Shown here: positions 1,835-55,341 of the stretch, piece by piece | How the letters are laid out: each line of letters opens with the position of its first letter | Position numbering within the stretch: the first letter of the stretch is position 1 | From: a virus | Taxonomy: Duplodnaviria; Caudoviricetes | Virus record (IMG/VR): IMGVR_UViG_3300043442_000931 | Span: 5,574-69,573 of that record | Length of the DNA: 64,000 nucleotides | Direction: 5' to 3' (one strand) | Made by a program: the position numbers and the translations under genes | The notes under the pieces: generated by a model | Databases searched by the model: none | What the model was told of the DNA's origin: nothing | What the model saw: the letters and a program-made list of their open reading frames with translations, nothing else

Positions 1835-4800
1835 TTAATACCCCTGAACCGTCACATCAACTGAACCCGCCACGCCTGTTCCGGCGGCATTCAAAACCTG
1901 AACCGTTACATAGGTGGTGGTCTTCGCTAGCACTTTCGCACTAACAGCTTCTGTCCCAATATCCTGAATAGTAACCTGTACGGACTTGATTGTGTGGAAG
2001 GTCTTTGTTAAGGGAATTTGTGTCCCAGCGGCGACAACCGACACATCGTTGAAATTCTCCAGTACATCTGGATAGTCCAACGTATAGGAGACGGCACTTA
2101 TCTCGCCCGGTGTTGTTCCGTCGGTTGATCGCACCAGCGTCTGCACCCCATAAATATCCTCGGTTAACTCCTCGCCCGACGAATATGGGTGGAATACCGA
2201 AGCTGCCAGCTTGCTAACCTCGATGGCCGAGTAGTCAAGATCCGTCTTGTTGAGGGAATCACCGGCCTCGGTCTGGAGTTCGTTGCCGCTTTCGTCGGCT
2301 AGTGCCACCTCCACCCCCGTCAGGGCTGCGATCCGGTGTTGCGTGGTAGCCGTGGCTGTCGTGGTTATTGTCAGTTGGCTCTTGATGTAATCGTTATCAA
2401 GCCGCCAATACACATAGGCGTCCTGGGCGGGGTCCACTTGCTTGAGGTATTTGGTGACGGTGTGCTGAAGGACGTTGGAATCCTCCGTTAGCAGATCCGC
2501 ACCCGTCTCGGTTCTAAGATCCGCGACATCTGTGACTTCGCAGTTTATGTATTCGTTGGTGCTTGCATCCAGATTCCAGGCGACGGTATTTACAACGTTT
2601 GCCGTTAGCTTGTCTACTAGATGGACGGTGATGAACACGACCTTGTCTGAGACCCAGCCCGTCTGATCAGAAGCCCTCAGCAGGATTGTGTTCTCCCCAG
2701 ATGTGGCGAATAGCGTTGTCTCAAACCATGTCCGAGTGCCCGATACGCTATCCAAGGCAATAGCCTGATCCCACGCCTTCAGGAGTGCAGCATCCGTTGC
2801 ACTCTCCAGGTCGGTATTGATATACCGCAGCACATAGGACTTGATGTCAGAGACAATATTGTCCTTCCATGTCGTGTATGTTGACTTGGGTAGCTGCCAG
2901 GAGAATCGCTTTGTTCTGTTGTCGCTATTCAGAATAACAGTGAAGTTTGTTGGGGTGGGGGGTGCTATCTCCGCCCTCTCAATTTTGTCGGTTATGTATT
3001 TTGTGAATGTCTCACCAGAAATGTTGGAGGTAAAGTTAACTCTCACATCATAGGTAGACAGGGCCTTGAATTCAATATTGTATTCTCCGGTGAGTGTTAC
3101 GGAGTCGGAGAGTAGATACCAGCCGTCTTTGTCTGGTTTAGTATCACCTGGGATCGTTACACCGGCCTCTGGTTTTACCCAAACGGCATAGCCCTTTATG
3201 CGTTCAATGACGGGGGCAGTGCCTCGATCAATCTTCAGCTTGTGGCGACCATCCGAAAGGTTCTCGTGGGTAAGTTTTGCCTTGTAGGTACTGCTGGACA
3301 GATCCGCGACAGCGTCAAAGCCGTCCACCGTCACCTGAGCCCAATTGGACTGCTGTCCCAGACGATTTCTGGACGCAGCCCGAAACTCATAAGTGGTGCC
3401 CAGGGTGTAACTGGGAAGACTCACATCCCCATAGGTGTAGAGGGTATCCCCAATGCGCTGCCAAGCATTCGAGTCTTTGACTCGGTACTCCAGCCGGTAT
3501 TCGGCGATTTGGGGATCATCGATCCCGTTGACCTGGGGGGCTGTCCATGTTGCATATATGCGAGTGCGCCCGTTTTTGTAATCCAATTTCGCGGACAGGT
3601 TGCTCGGAGCGTCAACGTCTCGGATGAGGAAGCGGTCCTTGGGGACCGTCACAACGCTGTCCTTGTCGATGTAGTCGTAGGACGAGGCATTGTATTGCAG
3701 TGCCTCGATCTGAAATACCATTGGCTCAACTTCAGAGAGCCCCAGGATCCGATATAGCCGGGCCTGCATATCGGTCCATTCCAGCACCCAGATCGAGCCT
3801 GCCACCCCTGAGACCGCTGCGCTGCATGTAAGGGTGGTTCGACCGCTGCTGTCCGTAGAGAAGCTGCTAACCGTGCGCTCTTGCAGTTGAGGTCGTACTG
3901 AGGTGGTGCTATCGCCGTTGGTGACGGTTTCCCCATCGGGGACAACCACCGTCACGGTATAGGTCGTATTTGAATTCAGAGAGAGTGTGGCATCCAGGGT
4001 TATGGTTTTGTCGCTGACACTGACAATGCGACCTCCAAGACGCTGCCCCTGGCGCACCGGATCGGCAATCTGAATAATGTCACCGATGCCTGATGCAAGA
4101 CCCTCAGCCCCCACCTTAAATGTAACCTTGTCCGTCAGGTAGCGGTTTGCAAATAAGGCAAATTTAGCCGCACGGAGTGCTTGTCCCCGAGAAGTGACAC
4201 CCAGCAATCTCAGGTCCGTTGGATTGTAGCCGTAGCGTCGGAGTAGTTCATCATCCTGCAAGTACTCCGAAACAGCATTGTAGTTTTGATCAGGATCGTC
4301 CCAGGAGGCAATCACTACCGATTTGCGTGCTGTTCTGGACGAACCTTGGTAGACAAAAGGTGGAGCTGTTATGTTGCCATTATCATCGGTCTCTTGGATT
4401 ACGTTGGCTTCCGTGAATTGCTGAACGGGGGTGCCGGGCTTGTCCTGACTCAAGAAAAGCTTGCCTTGGGAGTAGTAAATCAGCCCTCGGAAGCACGATG
4501 CCAACGCATTCAGAACCTCAAATACGCTCCCTTCGTTCTGTAGGTAAACGTTGCAGCGGAAGCGAGGCTCAGTTCCCCCTTTGCCGTTCGATACGCTTTC
4601 GTCGCAATATTTGGCAATTTCCAGCAGCTTCCACTTGTCCACATCTGCGGTGGATAGATAACGCTTTACCCCAAATATCGGGTTGACTACAATGTCTCTG
4701 AAAATCCAAGCCGGATTATCTGTCCAGGCTGTTTTCCAAGTACCGTCCCAGGTGCCATCGTAGGTGCGCTTGGTGGGATCATAGTTTTTCGGGACTTGTA

Positions 4801-33891: not shown

Positions 33892-33947
33892 GACGGCACT
33901 TAGTTGGTTATCCAGCAGCCCCACGTGGAGGGGTCCGTCCTGCTGCC
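33892..33947 (-). ncRNA. Minimal HDV-like ribozyme #1
   Basis: P1 GGCAGC/GCUGCU, P2 GACGG/CCGUC, P3 CCC/GGG, L3 UCCACGU, P1.1 GG, J4/2 CUAA; predicted cleavage 5' of G33947. Confidence 0.85.
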
Positions 33948-34025
33948 GGGGCCAGGGAGCCAGCTAGCTCCACTTGCCCAGTTCATGATTTGGTTAGCTG
34001 GAGTTATACCAGCTCAAGTGAAATT

Positions 34026-34055
34026 ATTTTATTTCAGGTAGTTGAATCGTGTCAA
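34026..34055 (-). promoter_or_regulatory. Sigma70-type promoter
   Basis: TTGACA-N18-TAAAAT on the minus strand upstream of DUF932. Confidence 0.6.
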
Positions 34056-34056
34056 C

Positions 34057-34380
34057 CTATTCTGGATAAACTCGGATCCGTCCAGACCAGTTGCCCCCCA
34101 CGCCCAGGCGCGAGGCCAAACCTCCAGACATATCCAGCTCACATGTGCCAGAACAGGTATCCGTGACCGGCACGTTATAGACGCAGCGGTCTTTGCGGCA
34201 AACAGTAACGCGCCGCCCAAACCATTGATCTGAGGCGGCGCTAACAGCGGTATGCCAATAGATTTTGCCGCTGGCGGTTGGTCTCCCGTGAAAATCGGGA
34301 TGATAGACCGTACCGTGTGTGGCCATAGCCGGGGCGGCGCTAGTGGCCAGGATTGCCAAACTAGAGAGTAGTTTCTTCAA
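34057..34380 (-). CDS. RlpA-like double-psi beta-barrel protein with signal peptide
   Basis: TTG start KKLLSSLAILATSAAPAMA; FHGRPTASG, VTDTC...LDMSGG. Confidence 0.75.
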   Translation of the reverse strand: MKKLLSSLAILATSAAPAMATHGTVYHPDFHGRPTASGKIYWHTAVSAASDQWFGRRVTVCRKDRCVYNVPVTDTCSGTCELDMSGGLASRLGVGGNWSGRIRVYPE

Positions 34381-34400
34381 ACGTTTTCGCTGAGTTCGAC

Positions 34401-34455
34401 GCCTGTGTTGGTTGGTTATCCAGCTCCACCACGGGGAGGTCACAGGCTGGGAGCC
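34401..34455 (-). ncRNA. Minimal HDV-like ribozyme #2
   Basis: P1 GGCUCC/GGAGCU, P2 GCCUGUG/CACAGGC, P3 ACC/GGU, L3 UCCCCGU, J4/2 CCAA. Confidence 0.88.
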
Positions 34456-34478
34456 GTTGGGGGCCGAAGCCCCACATT

Positions 34479-35303
34479 CTAGATTTCGGTCAGCAGCTCC
34501 AGGCAATAGGCTTTGGAGCCTACGGGGTGGACGCTAGCGATAGCGCCCTCTGCCGAATAGAGTTCGCGGACTTCGTCCGCATTGGAGGTGGTGGTCAGCA
34601 GCACCTGGGCAGGACGCCCGTCGGTGTACCGGACACACACCACATAGGTCCGCTTGGGTGCCAGGGCACCTTCAGCGGGAGCTTCACTGGAGGAGCGCCG
34701 CTTGCGGGCGACCGCTTTCTCCTGTTTGACCACCTCCAGAGCTTTGGATTGGTGGTCAATCGAGCCCTGGGCGGATCGGGTGATCTGGAGGGCGTCGTTG
34801 ATTGAAATCATCTTGGTTTGGACTGCTTCCAGCACCTCGGGGGATGCTGCAATCAGATCCAGACGGTTTCGGATTGTTTGGACAGACTTGCCCAAACGTT
34901 TGGCAATCTCCACCTCGGTGTGGCCCCAGTTCAGGAGCCGTTGGATGGACTTCGCCTCTTCCAGAGGTGTTAGCTGCTCACCCGTATTGGTGAGCATGGC
35001 TATATAGAGCCTGTCGATGTCCGACATGTTCTTCTGGACCCGGATTACCGGGACTTTGAGTTCGGTAAGCCCTTCCTGCATGAGTTGCAGGCAGGCCCGC
35101 AAACGCCGTTCGCCATCTACCAAGTGGGTTTCGCCATTGACGAACCGCACTTGCAGCGGCGTGATGACCCCCTGTTCGCGGATCGAGTTCTTCAACTCGT
35201 CCAGCTTGTGGGGGTCGAAGTGTTCGCGAGGGTTCCACCCCTCGTCGATAATGATGTCCGCAGGGGACATAACGTAGAAATCTTTGCGCGTGAAATCGGC
35301 CAT
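34479..35303 (-). CDS. ParB/Srx N-terminal domain protein with HTH (RepB/Spo0J-like)
   Basis: WNPREHF, LKNSIREQGVITPL, LVDGERRLRA, LTPLEEA...IAKRLGKS. Confidence 0.88.
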   Translation of the reverse strand: MADFTRKDFYVMSPADIIIDEGWNPREHFDPHKLDELKNSIREQGVITPLQVRFVNGETHLVDGERRLRACLQLMQEGLTELKVPVIRVQKNMSDIDRLYIAMLTNTGEQLTPLEEAKSIQRLLNWGHTEVEIAKRLGKSVQTIRNRLDLIAASPEVLEAVQTKMISINDALQITRSAQGSIDHQSKALEVVKQEKAVARKRRSSSEAPAEGALAPKRTYVVCVRYTDGRPAQVLLTTTSNADEVRELYSAEGAIASVHPVGSKAYCLELLTEI

Positions 35304-35327
35304 GTGATTCTTCCGTTGTTATGGAGT

Positions 35328-35380
35328 TGATCCAATTAGCAAAACCAGCACCACCGCGTGGAGGTTTGGATCACGGTGCC
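35328..35380 (-). ncRNA. Minimal HDV-like ribozyme #3
   Basis: P1 GGCACC/GGUGCU, P2 UGAUCCAA/UUGGAUCA, L3 UCCACGC, J4/2 GCUAA. Confidence 0.9.
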
Positions 35381-35402
35381 ACGGGGCTTGAGCCCCCAAA
35401 CG

Positions 35403-35696
35403 TTATTTGAAATTTGCAAATGCCTGATCAGGATCTACCTCAAGGACTGGAACGCGCATATAGACGCCCTCCGCATGAAGCTCCAAGCAGGCTTTTAGCC
35501 GCAGATAACCATCTACCAATTCAGGAACCCCCAAAGCCCCGCCAATGCGCCGGATACGCAAGGGCTTGAGGACACCATTACGTCGAATGGATTCTTTCAG
35601 CTCTGTAACTTGCTCCTGAGTGTAGGTGTTCGGGTGACAGGCTGGTAGAACCTTGATAAGCCGGGGTTGAATCATGTACACGTCATTGCGAGGCAT
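35403..35696 (-). CDS. Stand-alone ParB N-terminal domain protein
   Basis: ELKESIRRNGVLKPL, LVDGYLRLKAC; ATG MPRNDV at 35696. Confidence 0.75.
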   Translation of the reverse strand: MPRNDVYMIQPRLIKVLPACHPNTYTQEQVTELKESIRRNGVLKPLRIRRIGGALGVPELVDGYLRLKACLELHAEGVYMRVPVLEVDPDQAFANFK

Positions 35697-35721
35697 TATC
35701 GTATCCCGTTGTTGTTTAGGA

Positions 35722-35773
35722 GATCCAATCAGCGAAATCAGCACCACCACGCGAAGGTTTGGATCACGGTGCC
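35722..35773 (-). ncRNA. Minimal HDV-like ribozyme #4
   Basis: P2 GAUCCAA/UUGGAUC, L3 UUCGCGU with compensatory P1.1 partner GA, J4/2 GCUGA. Confidence 0.9.
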
Positions 35774-35805
35774 ACGGGGGCAGTGCCCCCAAAAATGTTT
35801 ACATC

Positions 35806-36147
35806 TTAAGAAATTGCCACTGCACAGAGAATATCATTTCTGACAGTGTCGAGTTCCTGCGTATGATCCAAGCCCAGTGCTTGGGCAAAGGAGCGAATCT
35901 GGGCTTCGGATGCTGCCGCAACGGGCAGCTCTTCCGCCAACAGCTTGTCAATCTGGTCCAGGGCCAGCTTCAGTTTGATAATCATCGCTTCGGGCTTTCC
36001 AGCCACGAATTCGAGGATCGTCTTAGCTAGCTGCCAAACCCAGTGCATGAGCTGCTGGGTTACGGCTTGGACGCCGAGTACCACTCGCTGGATAACGATT
36101 CGCGCCTTGTGAATCAGAGAACGCAGTGCGCTTTTCAGGTCGGTCAT
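35806..36147 (-). CDS. Hypothetical protein
   Basis: ATG MTDLKS preceded by the A/C-rich leader. Confidence 0.65.
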   Translation of the reverse strand: MTDLKSALRSLIHKARIVIQRVVLGVQAVTQQLMHWVWQLAKTILEFVAGKPEAMIIKLKLALDQIDKLLAEELPVAAASEAQIRSFAQALGLDHTQELDTVRNDILCAVAIS

Positions 36148-36478
36148 TTGTGGTTCCTTTGTGTTGTTTGGTTTGGCCGATATTTGTATGCGCCTCGGAA
36201 CCGGGCGCAGCATCCAAAGCCGCAGCGACTTTCAGTCGCAAGCTGTCCGTGGACATACGGCTGTAGTTGCGGATTCTCAAACGTTTGGCGAGAACCAACA
36301 GGTCACGCCGGTTATCTGGAATTGCACTAGGGGCGGGTGGTTCGGGGTGGGTTGGGGGTGGAGCTTCCGCCAAACGTTTGGCAGCAAACAGCTCCACCAG
36401 CCAATCCACAAGCGCCCAAACCAGCGCAGCAAACAGCACCACCGGATAGGCCGGATGGTTACGGTCAATCGTGTTCAT
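36023..36478 (-). CDS. Hypothetical protein with Rho-N-like helical motif (C-terminus overlaps the next gene)
   Basis: RRDLLVLAKRLRIRNYSRMSTDSL; N-terminal hydrophobic segment. Confidence 0.55.
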   Translation of the reverse strand: MNTIDRNHPAYPVVLFAALVWALVDWLVELFAAKRLAEAPPPTHPEPPAPSAIPDNRRDLLVLAKRLRIRNYSRMSTDSLRLKVAAALDAAPGSEAHTNIGQTKQHKGTTNDRPEKRTAFSDSQGANRYPASGTRRPSRNPAAHALGLAAS

Positions 36479-36535
36479 TTGTTTTTCCTAATGCTGGTAG
36501 CGCCACCGTGTAGAGAGTGGGGCGCTAGTTGTTGA

Positions 36536-36544
36536 ATTATACCA
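36536..36544 (-). promoter_or_regulatory. Extended -10 promoter
   Basis: TGgTATAAT on the minus strand just 3' of twister #1. Confidence 0.5.
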
Positions 36545-36558
36545 CGATAAGCGTGGTT

Positions 36559-36610
36559 GCTCCCTCTGCGTTTGAACCCCGGCTTGGGACGGGCGTAGGC
36601 CGCATTAAGC
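36559..36610 (-). ncRNA. Twister ribozyme (type P1) #1
   Basis: GCU UAA UGCG GCC UAC GCCCG UCCCAAGC CGGG GUUCAAA CGCA GAGGG AGC; P1, P2, P4, T1 (CCC/GGG) and T2 (GC/GC) intact; U^A cleavage at 36607/36606. Confidence 0.9.
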
Positions 36611-36633
36611 GTGGGGCCGAAGCCCCACTATGG

Positions 36634-37191
36634 TTAGCAGAAGATGTGGCTCTGATCGCCGTATCGGATCTCGTAGAAGTCGCCGGTTTCCAGCTCCTCC
36701 CACGCACCTTTGTAGTCGATGTTGTGCCGGATCAGATCCGGCAGCGAGTCCACATCCACGCTCTCGTGGATGAATTCATAGGCGAATTCCCAGGCATAGT
36801 CATAGGTGCCTCGGTACGCCTCGGCGAACTCCTCGACGCACCCCCACCGCATGTGGTGGTAGGTACAAGAGTTCCACTTCAGATACAGCTCCCATTCCAG
36901 CTTACGGGCTTCGATTTCTTCGAAGTCCTCGGCAATCTGGCCCAGGTCAGCCAGGGTGGCGAATTCGCCGAGCTGGCCGCCGCATCGTTCGGAGTCGTGG
37001 ATGGCCCACTCCTCGGCGATGTCGCCGGTCTTGCGGGCGTAGGGGGATTGGGCCAGCATGGCCTGGATGGCCTGCTCATGGTCCGTAACCCCATCCAGCT
37101 CCAGCCAGCACCCGTGTAGGATGCCAGCGTTGTAGTCGCTCAAGCTGGCAATGTATACCGCTGGAGCATTTTGAGTTAGAGTGATGGTCAT
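36634..37191 (-). CDS. ardA: Antirestriction protein ArdA
   Basis: VYIASLSDYNAGILHGCWL, EEWAIHDSE, acidic C-terminus with YIDY-like NIDYKG. Confidence 0.9.
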   Translation of the reverse strand: MTITLTQNAPAVYIASLSDYNAGILHGCWLELDGVTDHEQAIQAMLAQSPYARKTGDIAEEWAIHDSERCGGQLGEFATLADLGQIAEDFEEIEARKLEWELYLKWNSCTYHHMRWGCVEEFAEAYRGTYDYAWEFAYEFIHESVDVDSLPDLIRHNIDYKGAWEELETGDFYEIRYGDQSHIFC

Positions 37192-37223
37192 GGAATTTGT
37201 GATTCCGTTGTTTGGTTTACGAC

Positions 37224-37258
37224 CCCTGGGACAGAGAAGTCGCCCAGGGGTTTTTTTT
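37224..37258 (+). terminator. Strong hairpin with T8 run (terminator on + strand; 5' leader hairpin of ardA on - strand)
   Basis: CCCCTGGG-N14-CCCAGGGG-TTTTTTTT. Confidence 0.55.
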
Positions 37259-37293
37259 GCGTGAAACGTGAAATTATCCAATTTCGGAACTGG

Positions 37294-37494
37294 TTAGCGC
37301 CACAGCTTCTCCTCACAGATTCGTGTGGGCTGGCCAACCAAAAGCTGATAGCGTTTGGCGGAAGCCAGACTGTCGAAGTATCGTTCTGCCCACCAGTGGT
37401 GGGTATTGGAGTCATAACGCTCCACCACATATAGCGTCGTCCACTTCGGCACTACCGAGTCGAAGACGATATCGCGTAAGTCGAACGTACTCAT
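37294..37494 (-). CDS. Hypothetical protein
   Basis: 66 aa, start overlaps the upstream stop. Confidence 0.55.
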   Translation of the reverse strand: MSTFDLRDIVFDSVVPKWTTLYVVERYDSNTHHWWAERYFDSLASAKRYQLLVGQPTRICEEKLWR

Positions 37495-37736
37495 TCACAC
37501 GACCCATCAGCTAGAAAGGTGGTGCAACCGTTGGGCAGTCGCCCAATCAGGTGGCCGTTCCACCGCAGCATTGCGGGGCTGTGGGTGGGAGCTATGTCGA
37601 ACCGTAGCTCCCGCAGAATCTCTGTGGGGTGTAGCCCGTAGTCACGACACCACCTATTGAGTAGGTGTCGCTGGGGCTCACTCAGACGCCGCAGGGTTGG
37701 TCCCTGCTCATATGCCTCGTAGGAAGAGAGGATCAT
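37491..37736 (-). CDS. Hypothetical protein
   Basis: 81 aa following ribozyme #5 and its leader. Confidence 0.6.
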   Translation of the reverse strand: MILSSYEAYEQGPTLRRLSEPQRHLLNRWCRDYGLHPTEILRELRFDIAPTHSPAMLRWNGHLIGRLPNGCTTFLADGSCE

Positions 37737-37761
37737 GTTTTGATTCCGATGTTTGGTTAGT

Positions 37762-37814
37762 CACTCGTTGGTTGGTTATCCAGCACCACCGCGAGGAGGT
37801 CGAGTGTTGGTGCC
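37762..37814 (-). ncRNA. Minimal HDV-like ribozyme #5
   Basis: P2 CACUCG/CGAGUG, L3 UCCUCGC (same as the HDV genomic loop), J4/2 CCAA. Confidence 0.9.
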
Positions 37815-37837
37815 ACGGGGCTCGGAGCCCCAGTCCG

Positions 37838-38488
37838 CTAGTCGCGGAGCAGTACCGGCATCAGATGACAGTACAGTCGAACGCCATCCTCCAGCTTGGC
37901 GCTGAAGTGCAGCATCGAACGGTTGGTCTTGCCCCATTGCAGGGACACAACCGTTCTCGGACACAGAGCCACTACCACCCCCAGGAAGTCCTGGGCGAGG
38001 CGGGCATCGAAGTTCAGCGACTCCACCCCCTGGGACTCGGTTCCCTCAATCAGGGAATCAAGGTCGGGGAATGTATACCCCGCATGGGCGGTGGAAATCT
38101 TCTTGTAGTCGAGGTGCATATTCGCACCCTTTTTCCGATTCAGAACATGCGCGATGTCCGAATCGAGAATATCGGCTCGGTGAGCCGAGCCCAGCCGACC
38201 CTTGGCGCGAAACTCGGCCACATTCAGGATGAGTTCGTCATCCCGCATATAGCCGCATGTTATAGCCTTGTCGGCTGTTATGTCGTAAATCTCGGCAGGA
38301 ACTGCCGGGATCTCGATTCGGAACATCCGCCAGCCATCCGTGGCATCCAGCAACAGCTTCGTGCCGTTCTGGACTTTGCGAATTCGTACAACGTTGCTGA
38401 TGGGCAGCTTCGTTGCGTCTTGGCTGGAGAACTGGACTGCTGCCCACAGAATACGGGGCGGCAGGATTGCGAGAAGTTCGCCGTTCAT
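37838..38488 (-). CDS. DNA sliding clamp (beta subunit)-like protein
   Basis: LDATDGWRMFRI resembles ATDGHRL; YTFPDLDSLI, NFDARL, and C-terminal HLMPV resemble DnaN repeats. Confidence 0.5.
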   Translation of the reverse strand: MNGELLAILPPRILWAAVQFSSQDATKLPISNVVRIRKVQNGTKLLLDATDGWRMFRIEIPAVPAEIYDITADKAITCGYMRDDELILNVAEFRAKGRLGSAHRADILDSDIAHVLNRKKGANMHLDYKKISTAHAGYTFPDLDSLIEGTESQGVESLNFDARLAQDFLGVVVALCPRTVVSLQWGKTNRSMLHFSAKLEDGVRLYCHLMPVLLRD

Positions 38489-38522
38489 GGTTGGTTCCGT
38501 TGTGTTTCAGTTGTTTGGTTGG

Positions 38523-38578
38523 TAGCACCACTCAGTCGAAGTCAACACCACCACGTGAAGGTGGGTGCTATTGGTGTC
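38523..38578 (-). ncRNA. Minimal HDV-like ribozyme #6
   Basis: P1 GACACC/GGUGUU, P2 UAGCACC/GGUGCUA, L3 UUCACGU (same as CPEB3) with P1.1 GA, J4/2 CUGA. Confidence 0.9.
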
Positions 38579-38599
38579 GTGGGGCCGAAGCCCCTAGGG

Positions 38600-39028
38600 T
38601 TAGGCGACCATCTGATTCAGGCGACGATATTCGTCCTGGGTGTATTCGTATAGTTCTGCGATACCCACCGGACAGAATGCCTCGTGGATTGCCGGAATCA
38701 GACTGACGGACATTGAGGCGTATAAGTCCCCATTTATACAGTCTGCATTAGGCAACTCAAAAACGTCGTGAGCATGCCCGGTTTGACACAAACCACAAGG
38801 CAGATGCAGCTCAACCCGCAGCTTCATAGCTGCAAGGCTTGTTATTGCTTTTGGGGTGTAGGGAGACTCATACATAACTACATTGACTTGCATAAACATG
38901 TACCGAACCAGTAACAGTTCAGTAGTTCCATTCAAACGCTCCGGGGTCTCCCAAAGTTTTTGAATGAATAGTGGGTTAACGCTAGCCAATGCAAGCTGCT
39001 TCATGTCATACAGATTTTTGAAGTTCAT
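38600..39028 (-). CDS. Hypothetical protein
   Basis: ATG MNFKN after ribozyme #7 leader. Confidence 0.6.
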   Translation of the reverse strand: MNFKNLYDMKQLALASVNPLFIQKLWETPERLNGTTELLLVRYMFMQVNVVMYESPYTPKAITSLAAMKLRVELHLPCGLCQTGHAHDVFELPNADCINGDLYASMSVSLIPAIHEAFCPVGIAELYEYTQDEYRRLNQMVA

Positions 39029-39051
39029 TGTGATTTCGTTGTTTGGTTGGT

Positions 39052-39103
39052 TGCTCGTTGGTTGGTTATCCAGCACCACCACGGGGAGGTGAGCATTGGT
39101 GCC
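39052..39103 (-). ncRNA. Minimal HDV-like ribozyme #7
   Basis: P2 UGCUC/GAGCA, L3 UCCCCGU, J4/2 CCAAC. Confidence 0.8.
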
Positions 39104-39127
39104 ACGGAGCCCACAGGCTCCGCATCC

Positions 39128-39235
39128 TTACAGGGTCATCAGTTGGTAAAGGCAGTAGAGAATGATTATCAGTCCCACTATCAGAATGAATAGTGCGCCT
39201 TTTGGGTTAAGCGCAACGAACAACAAGCTGCTCAT
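39128..39235 (-). CDS. Small membrane peptide (35 aa)
   Basis: MSSLLFVALNPKGALFILIVGLIIILYCLYQLMTL; GGAGA upstream. Confidence 0.5.
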   Translation of the reverse strand: MSSLLFVALNPKGALFILIVGLIIILYCLYQLMTL

Positions 39236-39353
39236 GGCTTTTCTCCTGGGTATTGGTTGATTGAAACACGGGCAGTTTCGGACCCTGGTCGATTAGTTCC
39301 AAGGAACGATAGCGACGGCGCAGATGCGCCTCGCGGTTGATTGTGTGAAACAT
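39207..39353 (-). CDS. Small hypothetical protein (48 aa)
   Basis: MFHTINREAHLRRRYRSLELIDQ... directly after ribozyme #8 leader. Confidence 0.5.
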   Translation of the reverse strand: MFHTINREAHLRRRYRSLELIDQGPKLPVFQSTNTQEKSHEQLVVRCA

Positions 39354-39374
39354 GTTGTGATCCGTTGTTTGGTT

Positions 39375-39427
39375 GATCAGTTGGTTGGTTATCCAGCACC
39401 ACCACGGGGAGGTCTGATCGGGGTGCC
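39375..39427 (-). ncRNA. Minimal HDV-like ribozyme #8
   Basis: P2 GAUCAG/CUGAUC, L3 UCCCCGU, J4/2 CCAA. Confidence 0.9.
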
Positions 39428-39449
39428 ACGGGGCTCTAGGCCCCTGCTG

Positions 39450-39896
39450 CTAGGGCAGCACTTGAACGGGAAGAACGTAGCTACGGGCATTGCAGGTTTC
39501 GCCGTAAAGATCGAGGATGCGATCTCGCTCAACATCAGCGGCTGCCTGTGCGGATTCTTCCGTTGTGTGGATAGTCAACGGATTGAAGTCGGTGCCACCC
39601 TCATATACGTCGTACCAAGACACGTAACCCTGAAACAGGGTTACAACTGCGGGGGCTGCAAAAACCTCGTCTTCGGTGATAGCGATTTTGTCCCGATCAG
39701 GGGGGACAATCAGCTCCTCCAAAGAGGAGATTCTGGTTTTTGGCACGTCAGCACCTTCGCAGAACTCCAGGGGGTCGTACCCAGCCTGGAAAGCACCCTC
39801 CAGGGATGCTTGTGCGGCGCTCAAGTCACCATCTACTTCCATGTAGATGGTGTAGTTGTTGCTGTAGACAACTACAGCCTTGTAGTAGCGAGTCAT
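39450..39896 (-). CDS. Hypothetical acidic protein
   Basis: 148 aa after ribozyme #9 leader. Confidence 0.65.
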   Translation of the reverse strand: MTRYYKAVVVYSNNYTIYMEVDGDLSAAQASLEGAFQAGYDPLEFCEGADVPKTRISSLEELIVPPDRDKIAITEDEVFAAPAVVTLFQGYVSWYDVYEGGTDFNPLTIHTTEESAQAAADVERDRILDLYGETCNARSYVLPVQVLP

Positions 39897-39919
39897 GGTT
39901 TATTCCGTTGTTGTTTGAT

Positions 39920-39972
39920 TGCTCGTTGGTTGGTTATCCAGCACCACCACGTGGAGGTTGAGCATTGGTGCC
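39920..39972 (-). ncRNA. Minimal HDV-like ribozyme #9
   Basis: P2 UGCUC/GAGCA, L3 UCCACGU, J4/2 CCAA. Confidence 0.85.
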
Positions 39973-40015
39973 ATAGCGGACCAACCGCGAGTGCGGCTGG
40001 TCCAGTTCAAACGCT

Positions 40016-40429
40016 TTAGACGATTTGGATGTCGTAGTACAACTGACAGCCCCGCTCCGCGAGGAAATTCAGTATCTGCTGCTGGAGTACATCCGCAGGA
40101 TTACGATCCTGGGATGCGAGTTCCGCACAGGTGACGCTCCGAGGAGCGTCGGGATTCTCAGCCACATGCAGCTCCAGGGCCTTCAGGGGGACACCGCGCT
40201 TGGCTTCGACGGCTGTCATATAGGCAGCGCAGAGGTTGTACAGCTCCACATCGCGTTGCGGCGTTACGGGCGTGACCTCGTCCGTATGGACATCCAGACG
40301 GGCCACGACCCGAATGGTTTCAATCTCGACTTGGGGTTGAGGTTGATAGTTGAAGTGACGCTTACTGACTGCGGTATAGGTGCCGAAGGCAGTTTGCTGG
40401 GTCTTCTTGTTAGAGAAAAGTCCGAACAT
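40016..40429 (-). CDS. Hypothetical protein
   Basis: ATG MFGLF after ribozyme #10 leader. Confidence 0.6.
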   Translation of the reverse strand: MFGLFSNKKTQQTAFGTYTAVSKRHFNYQPQPQVEIETIRVVARLDVHTDEVTPVTPQRDVELYNLCAAYMTAVEAKRGVPLKALELHVAENPDAPRSVTCAELASQDRNPADVLQQQILNFLAERGCQLYYDIQIV

Positions 40430-40457
40430 TTTTTGTTGATTCCGTTGTTGTTTGGTT

Positions 40458-40511
40458 GCATCACTTGGTTGGTTATCCAACACCACCACGGGGAGGTGGA
40501 TGCGTGGTGTC
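40458..40511 (-). ncRNA. Minimal HDV-like ribozyme #10
   Basis: P1 GACACC/GGUGUU, P2 GCAUC/GAUGC, L3 UCCCCGU. Confidence 0.85.
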
Positions 40512-40532
40512 ATTGGGGCCGAAGCCCCAAAA

Positions 40533-40817
40533 TTAAACCCAATCATCAGGTAGTTCTGCTTCGCAATCTATAGCGAACAGATCACCATCCTGATACAGGT
40601 AGTATTCGACTGAAGAATTATCGAACTTAAGACGTGCTTTAGCTAGGACTTCGTCCCAGCAATCCCAGTAATTTTCTGCGTCTGGTCCTGCAAGAAGCAC
40701 ATCTAAGTCTTCTTGCATAATACCTAACAAAGCGGAGGTATTACCGTATTTTTCAGCAAATCTTTTGGGGACATAGACGCCAAAACAGCCGTCTACTATA
40801 AGCATTACTGAGTCCAT
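40533..40817 (-). CDS. Hypothetical acidic protein
   Basis: 94 aa; G.YVP..FA and YYLYQDGDLFA motifs familiar from phage early proteins. Confidence 0.7.
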   Translation of the reverse strand: MDSVMLIVDGCFGVYVPKRFAEKYGNTSALLGIMQEDLDVLLAGPDAENYWDCWDEVLAKARLKFDNSSVEYYLYQDGDLFAIDCEAELPDDWV

Positions 40818-40841
40818 TTGCTATTCCTTTGTTGTTTGGTT

Positions 40842-40895
40842 GCATCACTTGGTTGGTTATCCAACACCACCACGGGGAGGTGGATGCGTGGTGTC
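40842..40895 (-). ncRNA. Minimal HDV-like ribozyme #11 (identical to #10)
   Basis: Same sequence as 40458..40511. Confidence 0.85.
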
Positions 40896-40917
40896 ATCGG
40901 GGCCGAAGCCCCAGCGT

Positions 40918-41331
40918 TCACAGGACAGCATCGAACCACGAGTGCAGGTCGCGCACTAATGTGCGAACTTGCCAGTAGTATTCGTCCTGATAGTTTTTGT
41001 CTAAAGTGCCGCTCTTGAACTCCTGCTGGAGGTAATCCAGATGGAGCTTTAAGTAAAAGAAGGCGTTATCGACTGCTTGAATTTTCATCATGTACTGAGT
41101 CGCTGGTAAAACCAGATTCAGTTCAGGCGCTACGTTTGTAAATTCGTAGTGCCAGCAATCCAGATACACCATATGGTATTTAATGATTTGCACCGCAACC
41201 CCTAGTTGTTGAGGGGTCATCGGACCATACACATATAGCTGCTCTACGTCATTGAGTAACCTGTGTATAGCCTTGATTTTGGTGTTAAGGATTTGCAGAT
41301 TCGCTTCAGCTTGCGAGATTTCGGTAGTCAT
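40918..41331 (-). CDS. Hypothetical protein
   Basis: ATG MTTEI after ribozyme #12 leader. Confidence 0.6.
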   Translation of the reverse strand: MTTEISQAEANLQILNTKIKAIHRLLNDVEQLYVYGPMTPQQLGVAVQIIKYHMVYLDCWHYEFTNVAPELNLVLPATQYMMKIQAVDNAFFYLKLHLDYLQQEFKSGTLDKNYQDEYYWQVRTLVRDLHSWFDAVL

Positions 41332-41356
41332 TGATTTGTGATTCCGTTGTTTGGTT

Positions 41357-41410
41357 AAGTCAATTAGTTGGTTATCCAGCACCACCACGAGGAGGTTTGA
41401 CTTTGGTGCC
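41357..41410 (-). ncRNA. Minimal HDV-like ribozyme #12
   Basis: P2 AAGUCAA/UUGACUU, L3 UCCUCGU, J4/2 CUAA. Confidence 0.9.
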
Positions 41411-41432
41411 ATCGGGGCCGAAGCCCCAGAGC

Positions 41433-41672
41433 TTACAGAACGTCCGCCAGCCAGTTTTCGTAGGCTTCGCAGGCGTTTGTAATGATCTCGATTTCTTCGT
41501 CCAGTTCCGCCTGAGTGAGACGGCCAGCGAGGTAATCCTTTTCCAGCTTGTTCAGCTTGGCCATCTGACGGTCGAACCCGTCTTGGATGGCTCGGATTTG
41601 GTCTTCCCGCGTGATGCGGGAAGCTTGTTGGCTGCGCTCGATGCGACGGACCAGGGTATTGAAGTTGGACAT
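41433..41672 (-). CDS. Hypothetical coiled-coil protein
   Basis: ATG MSNFNT after ribozyme #13 leader. Confidence 0.65.
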   Translation of the reverse strand: MSNFNTLVRRIERSQQASRITREDQIRAIQDGFDRQMAKLNKLEKDYLAGRLTQAELDEEIEIITNACEAYENWLADVL

Positions 41673-41698
41673 TGTTTGTTCCGTTGTTGTTTGGTTGT

Positions 41699-41751
41699 TA
41701 CTTGTTAGTTGGTTATCCAGCACCGGCGCGGGGAGCCCAAGTAGTGGTGCC
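41699..41751 (-). ncRNA. Minimal HDV-like ribozyme #13
   Basis: P3 GGC/GCC (covaried), P2 UACUUG/CAAGUA, L3 UCCCCGC, J4/2 CUAA. Confidence 0.9.
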
Positions 41752-42060: not shown

Positions 42061-42130
42061 GTGCCCCTCTGCGTTTACCGGACTTGGGACCGGCCAACCA
42101 ATTCAGAAACTGGTTGGGTCGCATTAGCAC
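42061..42130 (-). ncRNA. Twister ribozyme (type P1, with P3 stem) #2
   Basis: GUGC UAA UGCG ACC CAACCA-N10-UGGUUG GCCGG UCCCAAGU CCGG UAAA CGCA GAGGG GCAC; T2 covaried to AC/GU; cleavage 42126/42125. Confidence 0.92.
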
Positions 42131-42416
42131 CACTCCAGCAAACGTTTGGCGAGGGCCGCACGTGCTGGCGTGTTGCTTCTGGTTGGGACGTACCGCACCC
42201 ACTCGGTGGACTAAACCGTGTCGTCTTCTCCCGTTTCGCGGACCAGATCCGCGCCTCTGTCACCCCGAGGAAGGGCCTTTTATTCAATTGGTCCGTTCAA
42301 ATTGCTACTTCAGGGAACGAGCGCGGTCCGCTTCCGCCGGTTTGTTCTTTTTGTGACGGATCACCTTGAACCGTCCTGCGTTATTTGATTTGAGCTTTCC
42401 CTTTCGGTATGTACCT

Positions 42417-42445
42417 ATTATAGCGCAACTCAACTTATAGTGCAA
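42417..42445 (-). promoter_or_regulatory. Strong sigma70-type leftward early promoter
   Basis: TTGCAC-N17-TATAAT. Confidence 0.75.
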
Positions 42446-42530
42446 CAAATAATTTGGAGAATTCCGGGTTATTTTCTTGGAAAAGCCCAGATTTTGACGC
42501 TATAACGGTACTTATAGTAAGAGAAACATC

Positions 42531-42764
42531 ATGTCTGAGCACAATCCTGGGCTTCGCTTGCAGTTCCACCGCAAACTCCAGGGGCTGGAGCAGCGCGATC
42601 TGGCTGAGTGCCTGGGCGTATCCTCCCAGGCGATCTCGAACTGGGAGGGGAATCGGGCGACACCCCGCCTCAAGCCCCACCAGTACGCGACACTGCTGCG
42701 GATGCTGAAGCTGGAGCCTGACCAGCTAGCGGAGATTTATGCGACCAGCTCCACCTCGATGTGA
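42531..42764 (+). CDS. XRE/Cro-like HTH regulator
   Basis: LEQRDLAECLGVSSQAISNWEGNRATP. Confidence 0.88.
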   Translation: MSEHNPGLRLQFHRKLQGLEQRDLAECLGVSSQAISNWEGNRATPRLKPHQYATLLRMLKLEPDQLAEIYATSSTSM

Positions 42765-52552: not shown

Positions 52553-52778
52553 CGGAGCCCAGAACTGTCTGGTTCAGGTTCGTGATGGTGGCTTTAAGGC
52601 TATCGCTGAATATACGCCCGAACAAATGTACAGAGGGTTAGTATTCACGAATCGCGAGGATGCCGAACACGTAGCTCGGCATCTTAGGATGCAATGGCGT
52701 CGTCCAGTACGGGTGTATTCGGCCCCCCAGGTTGAGCGACTATTACAAAATCCTCGCCCTGGAAAGCCCCACCGCTAG
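52521..52778 (+). CDS. Hypothetical protein
   Basis: 85 aa in the operon. Confidence 0.5.
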   Translation: MEYVLTTNRRDGAQNCLVQVRDGGFKAIAEYTPEQMYRGLVFTNREDAEHVARHLRMQWRRPVRVYSAPQVERLLQNPRPGKPHR

Positions 52779-52842
52779 ACTGGTGAAACCACAAATTTGG
52801 TCCCCTGTCGCTAGGCGGGGGACTATTAGCGAGAACTTCTTT

Positions 52843-55341
52843 ATGGACATCCCTGCGTCCCTGGCCGTGACGGGTCGGGTGAGGAGCTGGCTGGAGAATC
52901 CGAGCAGCCGCTTACCCGTCAGTTGCACGGTTTTTGTTGTTGATGACGACATGGAAAGCCCGGAGGGCATCGAAGCCTCCTGGGCTTTTACGTCGAAAGC
53001 CCTGCGCAATGCAGCCGGGGTAGCTGTTCACCTGAGCAAGCTGCGCCCGAAGGGCACCGACAACGGCAAGGGGCTGGTGGCATCCGGTCCGGTCAGCTTC
53101 GCCCGGCTGTATAGCGCCCTGAACGAGGTGCTGCGGCGCGGAGGAACCTATAAGAATGGGGCTGTGACGCTGCATCTGGACTATGACCACCCGGATGCGC
53201 TGGAGTTCGTCACCACGGGGCGTGAGGTGCTGCCCTGGGCGAAGCGTGCGCTGAACGTGGATGACCAATTCCTGAATTGGCCCCATCTGGAGTTGGCAAT
53301 GCGGGCAATGCAGCGGGGTGATCTGTGGTTGGTCAAGAAAGTGTACGACACCCAGGGGCAACGGGTGTATCACAACGTTTGTGTCTCAGGTGACACCCTG
53401 GTCCTGACCGACCAGGGGCCTAAGGCTGCTCGGGATCTGGTGGGTAGGCCCTTCACGGCAATCGTGAATGGGACTGCGCACCCGTCCACCCAGGCAGGCT
53501 TCTGGTCGAACGGGTTTCGCCAAGTCGTTGAGGTCAGCACTCGCGAAGGCTATTCAGTGCGAGTCACCCCAGACCACAAGCTGCTGACGGCCTCTGGGTG
53601 GAAACAAGCAGATGAGCTGGTTCAGGGTGAGAAGCTGTTGCTGAATGAGCATCGCACCGCTGAAGCACTAGCGTGGGGCGGCATAGGTGACTTCGACCAG
53701 GGCTGGCTTCTGGGATGGCTGTTGGGGGATGGCACTTACGCCTCGGCTGACCAAGCCAAACTGGACTTTTATGGTTCCAAGGCTGTGTTGCTGAATGATG
53801 CCTTGCAGCGCATCCAAACCCTGGACCACATGCTGCAAGGACATGGCCACTACAGCGAGATACGAACGGGTCACTCCAGCAAGACCGTAGATCGCAAATC
53901 CGTAGGATCGGTCGCCTTAGCCAAGCTGGCCGAACAGTTCGCCATCACTCGTGACAACAAGACAGCGACTGAACTGCTCGATCAAACGTCGTCTGAGTTC
54001 CACCAGGGCTTCATCCAGGCGTATTTCGATGCAGATGGCACTGTCAATCGGGGTCAAGCAAGTGGTGCTGGTCGATGCCTATCCGTGACGAGTGTGAATC
54101 TGTGCAATCTGGAGCTGCTGCAACGGATGCTGCTACGGTTTGGAATTCGAGCCCGCATTTGGAAGAATCGCTACAACGGCGACAAAAAAATGATGCCGGA
54201 TGGCAAGGGAGGCAAACGTCTATACCAGACCCAACTGGCTTCCCGACTGGATATCTCCAGCCAGATCGACCTTCGCCGCTTCCATGACCTGATCGGATTC
54301 TCGCTGCCTGAAAAGCAGGAGAAACTGGAACAACTGCTGGCCAGCTATGGGCGAAGGGCGGCGTATTACAAACCCTTTGAGGCGACGGTTCAAGCCGTAA
54401 CTGCTTGTGGGGTGGAAGAAGTTTTTGACTGCACCATCCCAGGCGTCCACGAATTTGACGCCAATGGCCTACGCGCCCACAACTGTTTGGAGGTGAACTT
54501 ACCTCACAAAGGCACGTGTCTCTTAAGCCACGTGAATCTGGGGGCGGTAACGGTCGCGGAAATCCCCCAGGCGTTCACCGAAGGGATGCAATTCCTGTGC
54601 CAGCTCCATTCCAAAACAGGTGTTGGTGATTCGGGCATTTATCTGAGCCCCGAACAGGACAAACAGGTGGGGCTGGGTGTGCTGGGTCTGGCGAATCTGC
54701 TGGCAGCGGAGGGCGTCTCCTACAAGGAGTTCGTCGAGGCATTGGAAGGATCGAATACCAACGAGGTGGCTGTGGGACTGCGTAGTGCGCTCAAGGCAGG
54801 GTTCGCGTCGGCAGCAGCGGTCGCTAAGGCCCACGGCATGGAACGGGCATTCGCCATCGCGCCTACTGCCACATGCTCCTACCAGTACAAGGACCGTCGC
54901 GGCTATACGACCTGTCCCGAGATTTCGCCGCCGATTGGCCGCAGCGTGGACCGCGATAGCACCACCTTTGGTGTGGCCTCCTATGACTATCCACCAAATG
55001 TGGAGGTCGCCGAGGAGGTGGGCTGGGATGTGTACTTCCGGCTGCAATGTGAGTTCCAACGTTTGATGGATGAAACAGGGCTGGCCCATGCCATGTCCAC
55101 CAACTGGTGGAGCGACATGGTCCAGTGCGACCGCGACTTCATCAAACGTTTTCTGGATAGCCCGCTTAAGTCCCTGTACTACTCCCTACAGGTCATGCAG
55201 GGCACCCAGGACAAAAGTGAGCTGCTGGGTGGCGACGAGATCGATTACTCGATTCTGGGGCTGGATGTGTTCCCGCCCATCGGTCAGTCGCTGCCGGATG
55301 CAACCGATTTCAGCGCACCCTGTGTGGGTTGCGCCGAATAG
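52843..55341 (+). CDS. Ribonucleotide reductase large subunit (cyanophage type) interrupted by an intein
   Basis: AGVAVHLSKLRPKG, ASGPVSF, LRRGGTYKNGAV, NV/CLE finger loop, IAPTATCS, KSLYY, C-terminal CVGCAE. Confidence 0.92.
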   Translation: MDIPASLAVTGRVRSWLENPSSRLPVSCTVFVVDDDMESPEGIEASWAFTSKALRNAAGVAVHLSKLRPKGTDNGKGLVASGPVSFARLYSALNEVLRRGGTYKNGAVTLHLDYDHPDALEFVTTGREVLPWAKRALNVDDQFLNWPHLELAMRAMQRGDLWLVKKVYDTQGQRVYHNVCVSGDTLVLTDQGPKAARDLVGRPFTAIVNGTAHPSTQAGFWSNGFRQVVEVSTREGYSVRVTPDHKLLTASGWKQADELVQGEKLLLNEHRTAEALAWGGIGDFDQGWLLGWLLGDGTYASADQAKLDFYGSKAVLLNDALQRIQTLDHMLQGHGHYSEIRTGHSSKTVDRKSVGSVALAKLAEQFAITRDNKTATELLDQTSSEFHQGFIQAYFDADGTVNRGQASGAGRCLSVTSVNLCNLELLQRMLLRFGIRARIWKNRYNGDKKMMPDGKGGKRLYQTQLASRLDISSQIDLRRFHDLIGFSLPEKQEKLEQLLASYGRRAAYYKPFEATVQAVTACGVEEVFDCTIPGVHEFDANGLRAHNCLEVNLPHKGTCLLSHVNLGAVTVAEIPQAFTEGMQFLCQLHSKTGVGDSGIYLSPEQDKQVGLGVLGLANLLAAEGVSYKEFVEALEGSNTNEVAVGLRSALKAGFASAAAVAKAHGMERAFAIAPTATCSYQYKDRRGYTTCPEISPPIGRSVDRDSTTFGVASYDYPPNVEVAEEVGWDVYFRLQCEFQRLMDETGLAHAMSTNWWSDMVQCDRDFIKRFLDSPLKSLYYSLQVMQGTQDKSELLGGDEIDYSILGLDVFPPIGQSLPDATDFSAPCVGCAE
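53380..54483 (+). mobile_element. Intein with LAGLIDADG homing endonuclease (368 aa)
   Basis: CVSGDT...TPDHKLL...VFDCTIPGVHEFDANGLRAHN then +1 Cys; LGWLLGDGT and AYFDADGTV motifs. Confidence 0.93.

Follow-up and report, generated by a model that had tools for sequence, protein, structure and literature searches.

Thirteen predicted HDV-like minimal ribozymes at gene junctions of a tailed phage from IMG/VR

An array of HDV-like elements on the minus strand

The stretch of DNA analysed here, called the window, comprises 64,000 nucleotides of the IMG/VR virus record IMGVR_UViG_3300043442_000931 (Duplodnaviria; Caudoviricetes; positions 5,574 to 69,573). The whole record has 69,573 bp and is rated 99% complete. 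Between window positions 33892 and 41751 lie 13 copies of a minimal ribozyme resembling that of hepatitis delta virus (HDV), all of them on the minus strand and all within the interval in which a preliminary description of the sequence had placed such a family. The genes of the whole block are coded on this strand too; Pfam matches to ArdA, ParB_N and DUF932 fall on minus-strand open reading frames (ORFs). The array runs through about 19 small genes to the DUF932, terminase and portal genes.

The copies were detected by sequence pattern, by structure descriptor and by covariance model. A 23-nt core pattern with up to three mismatches found 10 copies in the window and none in 100 shuffled sequences, and a hand-written structure descriptor recovered 13. 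The covariance model R1, built on these 13 window copies, matched the window exactly 13 times at 51-90 bits, the next-best match reaching 17 bits, and an R1 search of the whole record revealed no copy beyond the 13. A strict descriptor demanding C at the catalytic position gave 12 matches in the window and none in 50 shuffles; the copy at 33892-33947 fails it only on the rule for helix P2, which has a one-base bulge there. The copies are listed below from the highest coordinate downwards, with G1 as the first nucleotide of each element.

41699-41751, minus strand: HDV-like minimal ribozyme, copy 13 in plus-strand order; G1 at 41751; R1 84.8 bits and descriptors; P3 GGC/GCC; 2 nt between hairpin and G1; ATG after a 26-nt leader
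41357-41410, minus strand: HDV-like minimal ribozyme; G1 at 41410; R1 90.5 bits and descriptors; P2 of 7 bp
40842-40895, minus strand: HDV-like minimal ribozyme; G1 at 40895; R1 80.7 bits and descriptors; A-U as second P1 pair; near-identical to 40458-40511
40458-40511, minus strand: HDV-like minimal ribozyme; G1 at 40511; R1 80.2 bits and descriptors
39920-39972, minus strand: HDV-like minimal ribozyme; G1 at 39972; R1 79.3 bits and descriptors; P2 of 5 bp; preceded by a 12-bp hairpin
39375-39427, minus strand: HDV-like minimal ribozyme; G1 at 39427; R1 85.1 bits and descriptors
39052-39103, minus strand: HDV-like minimal ribozyme; G1 at 39103; R1 83.3 bits and descriptors; P2 of 5 bp
38523-38578, minus strand: HDV-like minimal ribozyme (#6); G1 at 38578; R1 51.4 bits and descriptors; L3 UUC with GA; 6-nt linker; J4/2 CUGA
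37762-37814, minus strand: HDV-like minimal ribozyme; G1 at 37814; R1 85.0 bits and descriptors; L3 UCCUCGC
35722-35773, minus strand: HDV-like minimal ribozyme (#4); G1 at 35773; R1 64.7 bits and descriptors; L3 UUC with GA; 5-nt linker
35328-35380, minus strand: HDV-like minimal ribozyme; G1 at 35380; R1 68.9 bits and descriptors; P2 of 8 bp; 5-nt linker
34401-34455, minus strand: HDV-like minimal ribozyme; G1 at 34455; R1 71.9 bits and descriptors; U-A as fourth P1 pair
33892-33947, minus strand: HDV-like minimal ribozyme; G1 at 33947; R1 60.9 bits and the first descriptor; G-C as fifth P1 pair; P3 CCC/GGG; one-base bulge in P2; precedes the DUF932 gene

Fold, covariation and the register of P1

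All 13 copies fit the nested double pseudoknot of HDV. From 5' to 3', each consists of a 6-nt P1 strand beginning with G, a junction J1/2 of 1-2 nt, one strand of P2, a 3-nt P3 strand and the loop L3, which has 7 nt (U, two pyrimidines, any nucleotide, C, G and a pyrimidine). Then follow P3', a P1' strand ending in U, two purines, a linker, the junction J4/2 of the form C-N-R-A and P2'. P4 is absent from the window copies, and its position is occupied by an unpaired linker of 5-8 nt, giving elements of 52-56 nt. The preliminary description had claimed this fold, the exchange of P4 for a linker and the same lengths; the descriptor parse confirmed the linker and the lengths, and every testable detail of the fold fits in the 13 copies.

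Base pairs were counted both on a structure-blind MAFFT alignment and on a model-fitted alignment, with identical numbers. P1 has 6 bp and is 100% paired in 13 of 13 copies, with two-sided changes at three pairs and an invariant G1.U wobble at the predicted cleavage site. P3 (3 bp, 100% paired) occurs with three pair sets, and two of its three pairs covary. P1.1 (2 bp, 100% paired) changes from C-G to U-A in exactly two copies, 35722-35773 and 38523-38578. These are the #4 and #6 for which the coupling of a UUC loop with GA had been described, and the coupling is found in no other copy. P2 has 5-8 bp in every copy and 10 different sequences among the 13, all of which pair, and all six counted columns covary. 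Covariation in every helix, and a P2 that varies but always pairs, had both been claimed and stand on either alignment. Overall, 92.7% of the cells are paired, versus 75.5% in shuffles and 21-53% with slid partners. The first base of J4/2 is invariably C, and the strict descriptor finds its 12 matches with C at this position and none with A, G or U. The L3 strings quoted earlier for #5 and #6 are both present. The loop of #5 is presumably equal to that of HDV and the loop of #6 to that of CPEB3.

The copies are related to one another, and the shuffle tests therefore overstate significance to some degree. Relatedness is also what a dispersed intergenic repeat without RNA function would show, its helices arising by chance or common descent. 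This explanation is hardly credible, as ten different P2 helices all pair, P1, P3 and P1.1 bear two-sided changes only and no one-sided change among the 13 copies, and pairing collapses when the partners are slid. A further point against it is a compensatory P1 change that distinguishes corresponding copies in the similar arrays of two other phage loci, L014 and L028.

The base before G1 is U in 10 copies and C in three, and it is always able to pair with the first G after P1'. A 7-bp P1 starting from this position (-1) was considered and rejected: the partner G never varies, so that the extra pair has no two-sided change; the correspondingly shifted P1.1 breaks in 3 of the 13 copies, those with other linkers; and A stands at -1 in at least two relatives from other phages. 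A seventh pair on the inner side of P1 was likewise rejected: it would consume the final base of P3', and it breaks down in copies with C at position 7 or at the end of P3'. Together with the published split with a 6-nt P1 (see below), the invariant partner G, the broken P1.1 and the relatives with A at -1 make the 6-bp register appear better than the 7-bp alternative. The preliminary description, which put P1 one base pair below the canonical 7, is borne out in this respect.

Relatives in other phages and the published class

No Rfam model of the HDV family matched the window copies, even at E values up to 10, and nothing appeared at gathering thresholds. This is expected because the models include P4 and cannot encode pseudoknots. 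Exact-pattern scans of IMG/VR yielded 23 further loci (numbered here with L), many of them with R1 matches. In 32 copies from 14 sources, 95.7% of the cells are paired and 13 of 17 pairs have changed on both sides. A short P4 hairpin lies exactly at the HDV P4 position in some relatives (L014, L018, L028 and L033). One such P4-bearing relative, L033:3085-3148, scores 37.6 bits on the Rfam model HDV-F-prausnitzii (RF02682; gathering score 44). This match, although below threshold, ties the P4-less copies to HDV-like ribozymes independently of our descriptor. Four fragmentary contigs hold 5, 4, 3 and 2 copies per whole record, and the 13 found here are the highest number encountered. The nearest named phage, Synechococcus phage S-CBS4, has no copy, and a search for relatives based on DUF932 gave one locus (L022), which is without a ribozyme. 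In prokaryote genomes the first pattern had no matches. A looser pattern matched more than 120 stretches there, and of the 80 loci examined, four (with five matches) pass R1; the remaining loci are chance matches in GC-rich DNA. As judged by these pattern searches, the motif is rare in prokaryote genomes, in agreement with a published survey.

Several other RNA elements were noted in the related loci. Within 2.5 kb on the plus strand, L033 contains, besides a RAGATH-4-like RNA, a fold resembling twister and a pair of HDV-like ribozymes, of which one has P4 (L033:671-798, 1752-1804, 2310-2374 and 3080-3150); the RAGATH-4-like RNA scores 78 bits against a cut-off of 104. A short motif (CGGGTTTTT) recurs ahead of genes in the same locus. 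At L014:7516-7685 (minus strand), in a 350-nt non-coding gap of the related ribozyme array, a manA RNA (RF01745) is matched near threshold, with 51.2 bits versus a cut-off of 55.2.

The architecture of the window copies has already been published. In 2014, Riccitelli, Delwart and Luptak described minimal HDV-like ribozymes lacking P4 in metagenomes, according to the passages on that work in PMC6326823 and PMC10879173. Kienbeck et al. (2024) traced minimal HDV-like ribozymes to Caudoviricetes, refined the motif, named the hits theta ribozymes and found HDV-like self-cleavage in vitro for four of them (PMC10879173). In the part of their catalogue covered here, many entries share a 6-nt P1, a 3-bp P3, an L3 split as U/CC/NCGY, GG, the same 8-nt linker and a CCAA junction, and the drz-Mtgn-1 type is split in the portion of the tables covered with a 6-nt P1 and a UC/GA P1.1 (PMC10879173). 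Both a 6-bp P1 and a missing P4 have thus been published before, and the novelty that the preliminary description implied for them does not hold. The window copies add members to the class and no new ribozyme structure.

All 13 copies parse by a theta descriptor that we inferred from the published segment tables: P1 (6-7), J1/2, P2, P3 (3), U, 2 nt, NCGY, P3', P1', 2 nt, a linker of 5-17 nt, a J4/2 led by C, and P2'. The window copies thus share with drz-Mtgn-1 to -5 and the theta ribozymes a P1 of 6-7 bp starting from G, a short J1/2, P2, the 3-bp P3, an L3 of U, two nucleotides and NCGY, a covarying 2-bp P1.1 (CC/GG or UC/GA), a linker of 5-17 nt in place of P4 and the C-led J4/2; like the theta ribozymes, they are encoded by a tailed phage. 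In the tRNA-linked theta subgroup the cleavage site lies within 5 nt of a tRNA 3' end. No tRNA gene was found in the window with ARAGORN or in the whole record with RF00005, and no copy can have this neighbour in a genome without a tRNA gene. By these sequence features the 13 copies belong to the 'isolated', non-tRNA-linked part of the theta group. Isolated members make up 42% of theta ribozymes, and the authors left their function open (PMC10879173). None of the 13 exact sequences was found among the theta supplementary entries listed in the part covered (PMC10879173). The entries listed there in the theta table have one or two copies per record, in contrast to the 13 found here (PMC10879173). 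In addition, more than 80% of the published examples come from gut phages, whereas the nearest phage relatives here infect cyanobacteria.

The linker that replaces P4 was also compared. Its 8-nt form (AUAACCAA) is nearly constant in phages of 36-62% GC (L015, L023-L029 and L033) and in the published catalogue, and occurs at least 173 times in one and at least 78 times in another of the theta supplementary files, as counted in the portions covered (PMC10879173). Its conservation exceeds what a passive spacer would need.

Compared with the HDV and CPEB3 ribozymes, the window copies have in common the nested double pseudoknot, the G1.U pair at the cleavage site, the 3-bp P3, the same 7-nt L3 consensus, the 2-bp P1.1 and the C of J4/2. 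They differ in having 6 instead of 7 bp in P1, no P4, a length of 52-56 nt versus about 67-85 nt, and no Rfam match.

Gene junctions and the proposed role

The same plan was found at all 13 sites: a stop codon, a hairpin, 1-4 nt, G1 with the ribozyme, a leader and a start codon. The hairpin begins 5-9 nt after the stop codon, except at the last site (G1 33947), where the spacing is 109 nt. The hairpins are GC-rich, with 5-12 bp and -10 to -23 kcal/mol, and lack a U tract; an assignment as intrinsic terminators was ruled out, as no U tract follows them. The leaders, of 20-34 nt, are A/C-rich with a weak GGA motif resembling a Shine-Dalgarno site, and the distance from G1 to the start codon is 72-90 nt. 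L014 and L033 have the same layout of stop codon, hairpin, ribozyme and leader, with hairpins and leaders unrelated in sequence and strong Shine-Dalgarno sites in the leaders. Two further junctions carry twister-P1-like ribozymes, which are not members of the family:

42061-42130, minus strand: twister-P1-like ribozyme in the slot before the first array gene; RF03160 55.8 bits, E 1e-10, gathering score 67.2
36558-36611, minus strand: twister-P1-like ribozyme in an equivalent slot, preceded by a stop codon and then a tetraloop hairpin; RF03160 44.2 bits, E 3e-7, gathering score 67.2

With 13 HDV-like and two twister-like elements, a ribozyme is present at 15 of about 19 array junctions. The ribozyme-free junctions are overlapping or coupled genes and one spacer with only a hairpin. 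The sole long array junction without a ribozyme, 37192-37293, has a strong hairpin between an A run and a T run, then the usual leader; this hairpin is terminator-like on the plus strand, and a weak NsiR1-like Rfam match falls at 37208-37258.

The genes of the array include ArdA, two ParB_N proteins and a secreted DPBB-like protein, and ten other array ORFs tested had no Pfam match. A 151-aa ORF (36023-36478, minus strand) continues across the conserved leader into the beginning of the next gene (35806-36147, minus strand), the overlap being ~125 nt, and one of these two gene models may be wrong. Elsewhere, Pfam identified tailed-phage genes for the portal, large terminase, a J-type tail protein, PolA, a primase-helicase and ribonucleotide reductase, the last of which (52732-55341, plus strand) has an inserted intein that bears a LAGLIDADG domain. 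The portal is closest to that of Synechococcus phage S-CBS4 (38% identity) and to those of Aphanizomenon and Planktothrix phages. A cyanobacterial host is therefore likely on the basis of sequence similarity.

A consensus scan of the coding strand within the array found one promoter-like site and three terminator-like sites, all three inside ORFs. Such sparse internal signals would fit one long transcript without proving it. The array begins after a promoter-like site near 42420-42460, read by eye, with a perfect TATAAT and a weak -35 element, which the consensus scan had missed; it points away from a gene for a Cro/CI-like helix-turn-helix repressor (42531-42764, plus strand). From this site, the minus strand of window 42131-42460 has a leader of ~285 nt that matches nothing in Rfam and would be removed by the first twister. 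A near-consensus promoter (TTGACA, 18 nt, TAAAAT) is also seen at 34026-34055 (minus strand) in the 109-nt spacer before the last ribozyme. The last ribozyme (G1 33947) may thus also trim the 5' leader of a transcript starting there toward DUF932, terminase and portal.

We propose that the 13 elements are cis-acting self-cleaving ribozymes of the minimal, P4-less HDV-like class. In view of the position of G1, 1-4 nt past the stable hairpin downstream of a stop codon and with the next start codon 72-90 nt away, they probably chop one long phage transcript into single-gene messages. What was observed is a fold with covarying helices, a C that never varies, the position of the elements and a matching layout in other phages, and from these we infer cleavage, polycistronic transcription and effects on message stability and translation. 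Once transcribed, each copy would fold into the nested double pseudoknot with P1 of 6 bp, P2 of 5-8 bp, P3 of 3 bp and P1.1 of 2 bp. By analogy with the tested members, it would cleave the RNA that contains it immediately 5' of G1 as soon as it is made, and the C that always opens J4/2 is the predicted general acid. The products would be an upstream message with a 2',3'-cyclic phosphate and a downstream message with a 5'-OH. A protective hairpin and 1-4 nt would form the 3' end of the upstream message, and the downstream one would start with the compact pseudoknot, followed by the unstructured A/C-rich leader. It is known from bacteria that 3' hairpins slow 3' exonucleases and that 5'-OH ends are poor entry points for RNases dependent on the 5' end. 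Because of these properties, each cistron might be stabilised and translated separately, without coupling to the adjoining ones.

The following points weigh against this proposal. No Rfam HDV model matches the P4-less copies. Four array junctions have no ribozyme, so the punctuation is incomplete. Cyanobacterial promoters often lack a -35 box, and the scan may for this reason have overlooked internal promoters. Some published minimal drz ribozymes are slow, drz-Mtgn-4 having a kobs of 0.002 per min (PMC10879173), and by this comparison the activity of each copy cannot be assumed.

The missing Rfam matches would also agree with pseudoknots that fold without cleaving, as structured elements of the 5' untranslated region (translation enhancers or protein-binding sites) that resemble HDV ribozymes, and retrotransposon RNAs are reported to have HDV-like folds at their 5' ends that help to initiate translation (review PMC6765202). 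We regard such non-cleaving leaders as very improbable, since 13 of 13 copies retain what catalysis alone requires (the G1.U wobble, the L3 consensus, P1.1 and C at J4/2) and in vitro cleavage has been published for members that share the segment pattern (PMC10879173). In addition, unrelated twister folds occupy equivalent slots, and the property shared by the two classes is therefore argued to be cleavage.

A different question is whether active ribozymes were selected for another purpose. The hairpin, ribozyme and leader form a unit of ~100 nt that might serve as a portable gene-cassette boundary, helping small accessory or anti-defence genes to recombine and to be shuffled between phages, or the ribozymes might only trim 5' leaders. 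The units at 40442-40515 and 40826-40899 (minus strand) are near-identical from the ribozyme into the first part of the leader, with differences confined to the end of the aligned leader, which suggests a recent duplication or gene conversion within the array. Two other pairs of copies share P2, and together with the near-identical units they point to duplication or gene conversion on a local scale. Phages of 36-62% GC have this linker and core in common, which suggests horizontal spread, and leader trimming would suit the first and last array elements, which follow promoter-like sites. A cassette boundary is nevertheless unlikely to be the selected role, because recombination needs no conserved pseudoknot, invariant catalytic C or compensatory changes, P2 differs in most copies, which reduces homology for recombination, and the constant distance of 1-4 nt between hairpin and cleavage site indicates the definition of an RNA end.

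Similar placements are known for other ribozyme classes. Processing of polycistronic phage RNA by hammerhead and twister ribozymes has been proposed and is unproven (PMC3088659, PMC6765202), and polycistronic RNAs in which ardA neighbours hammerhead ribozymes have been published (Perreault et al. 2011, PMC3088659). As in those clusters, several ribozymes flank single genes in one phage or prophage RNA, with ardA among the genes, and different ribozyme classes occupy the same kind of place. However, the hammerhead arrays have up to three ribozymes, whereas here 13 HDV-like and two twister-like ones are found, each with a dedicated 3' hairpin. Our literature search found no paper on HDV-like ribozyme arrays processing polycistronic phage RNA.

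For theta ribozymes the published role is tRNA 3'-end processing, and 58% of them adjoin tRNAs, whereas the upstream partner here is an mRNA 3' hairpin. By analogy, the link between the two settings may be that the ribozyme sets the 3' end of the folded RNA directly upstream. A broader proposal, whose chances we regard as evenly balanced, is that the hairpin-ribozyme-leader unit is a general RNA-punctuating device of phages, which in this virus would make 15 cuts in an operon with anti-restriction genes and yield separately stabilised and separately translated single-gene messages with 5'-OH ends.

The role of bacterial and phage self-cleaving ribozymes is largely unknown (reviewed in PMC6765202). 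The array extends the theta class from gut phages to a cyanophage-like virus. Each of its ribozymes stands at a gene boundary behind its own hairpin in an operon containing ArdA, a setting suited to testing mRNA punctuation, and the near-complete genome with 13 HDV-like and two twister-like ribozymes offers a compact natural test of operon punctuation. If the proposal is true, theta-type ribozymes would define the 3' end of the folded RNA upstream, a tRNA in gut phages and an mRNA-protecting hairpin here, and a long-sought function would be found for the phage ribozymes that are not linked to tRNAs.

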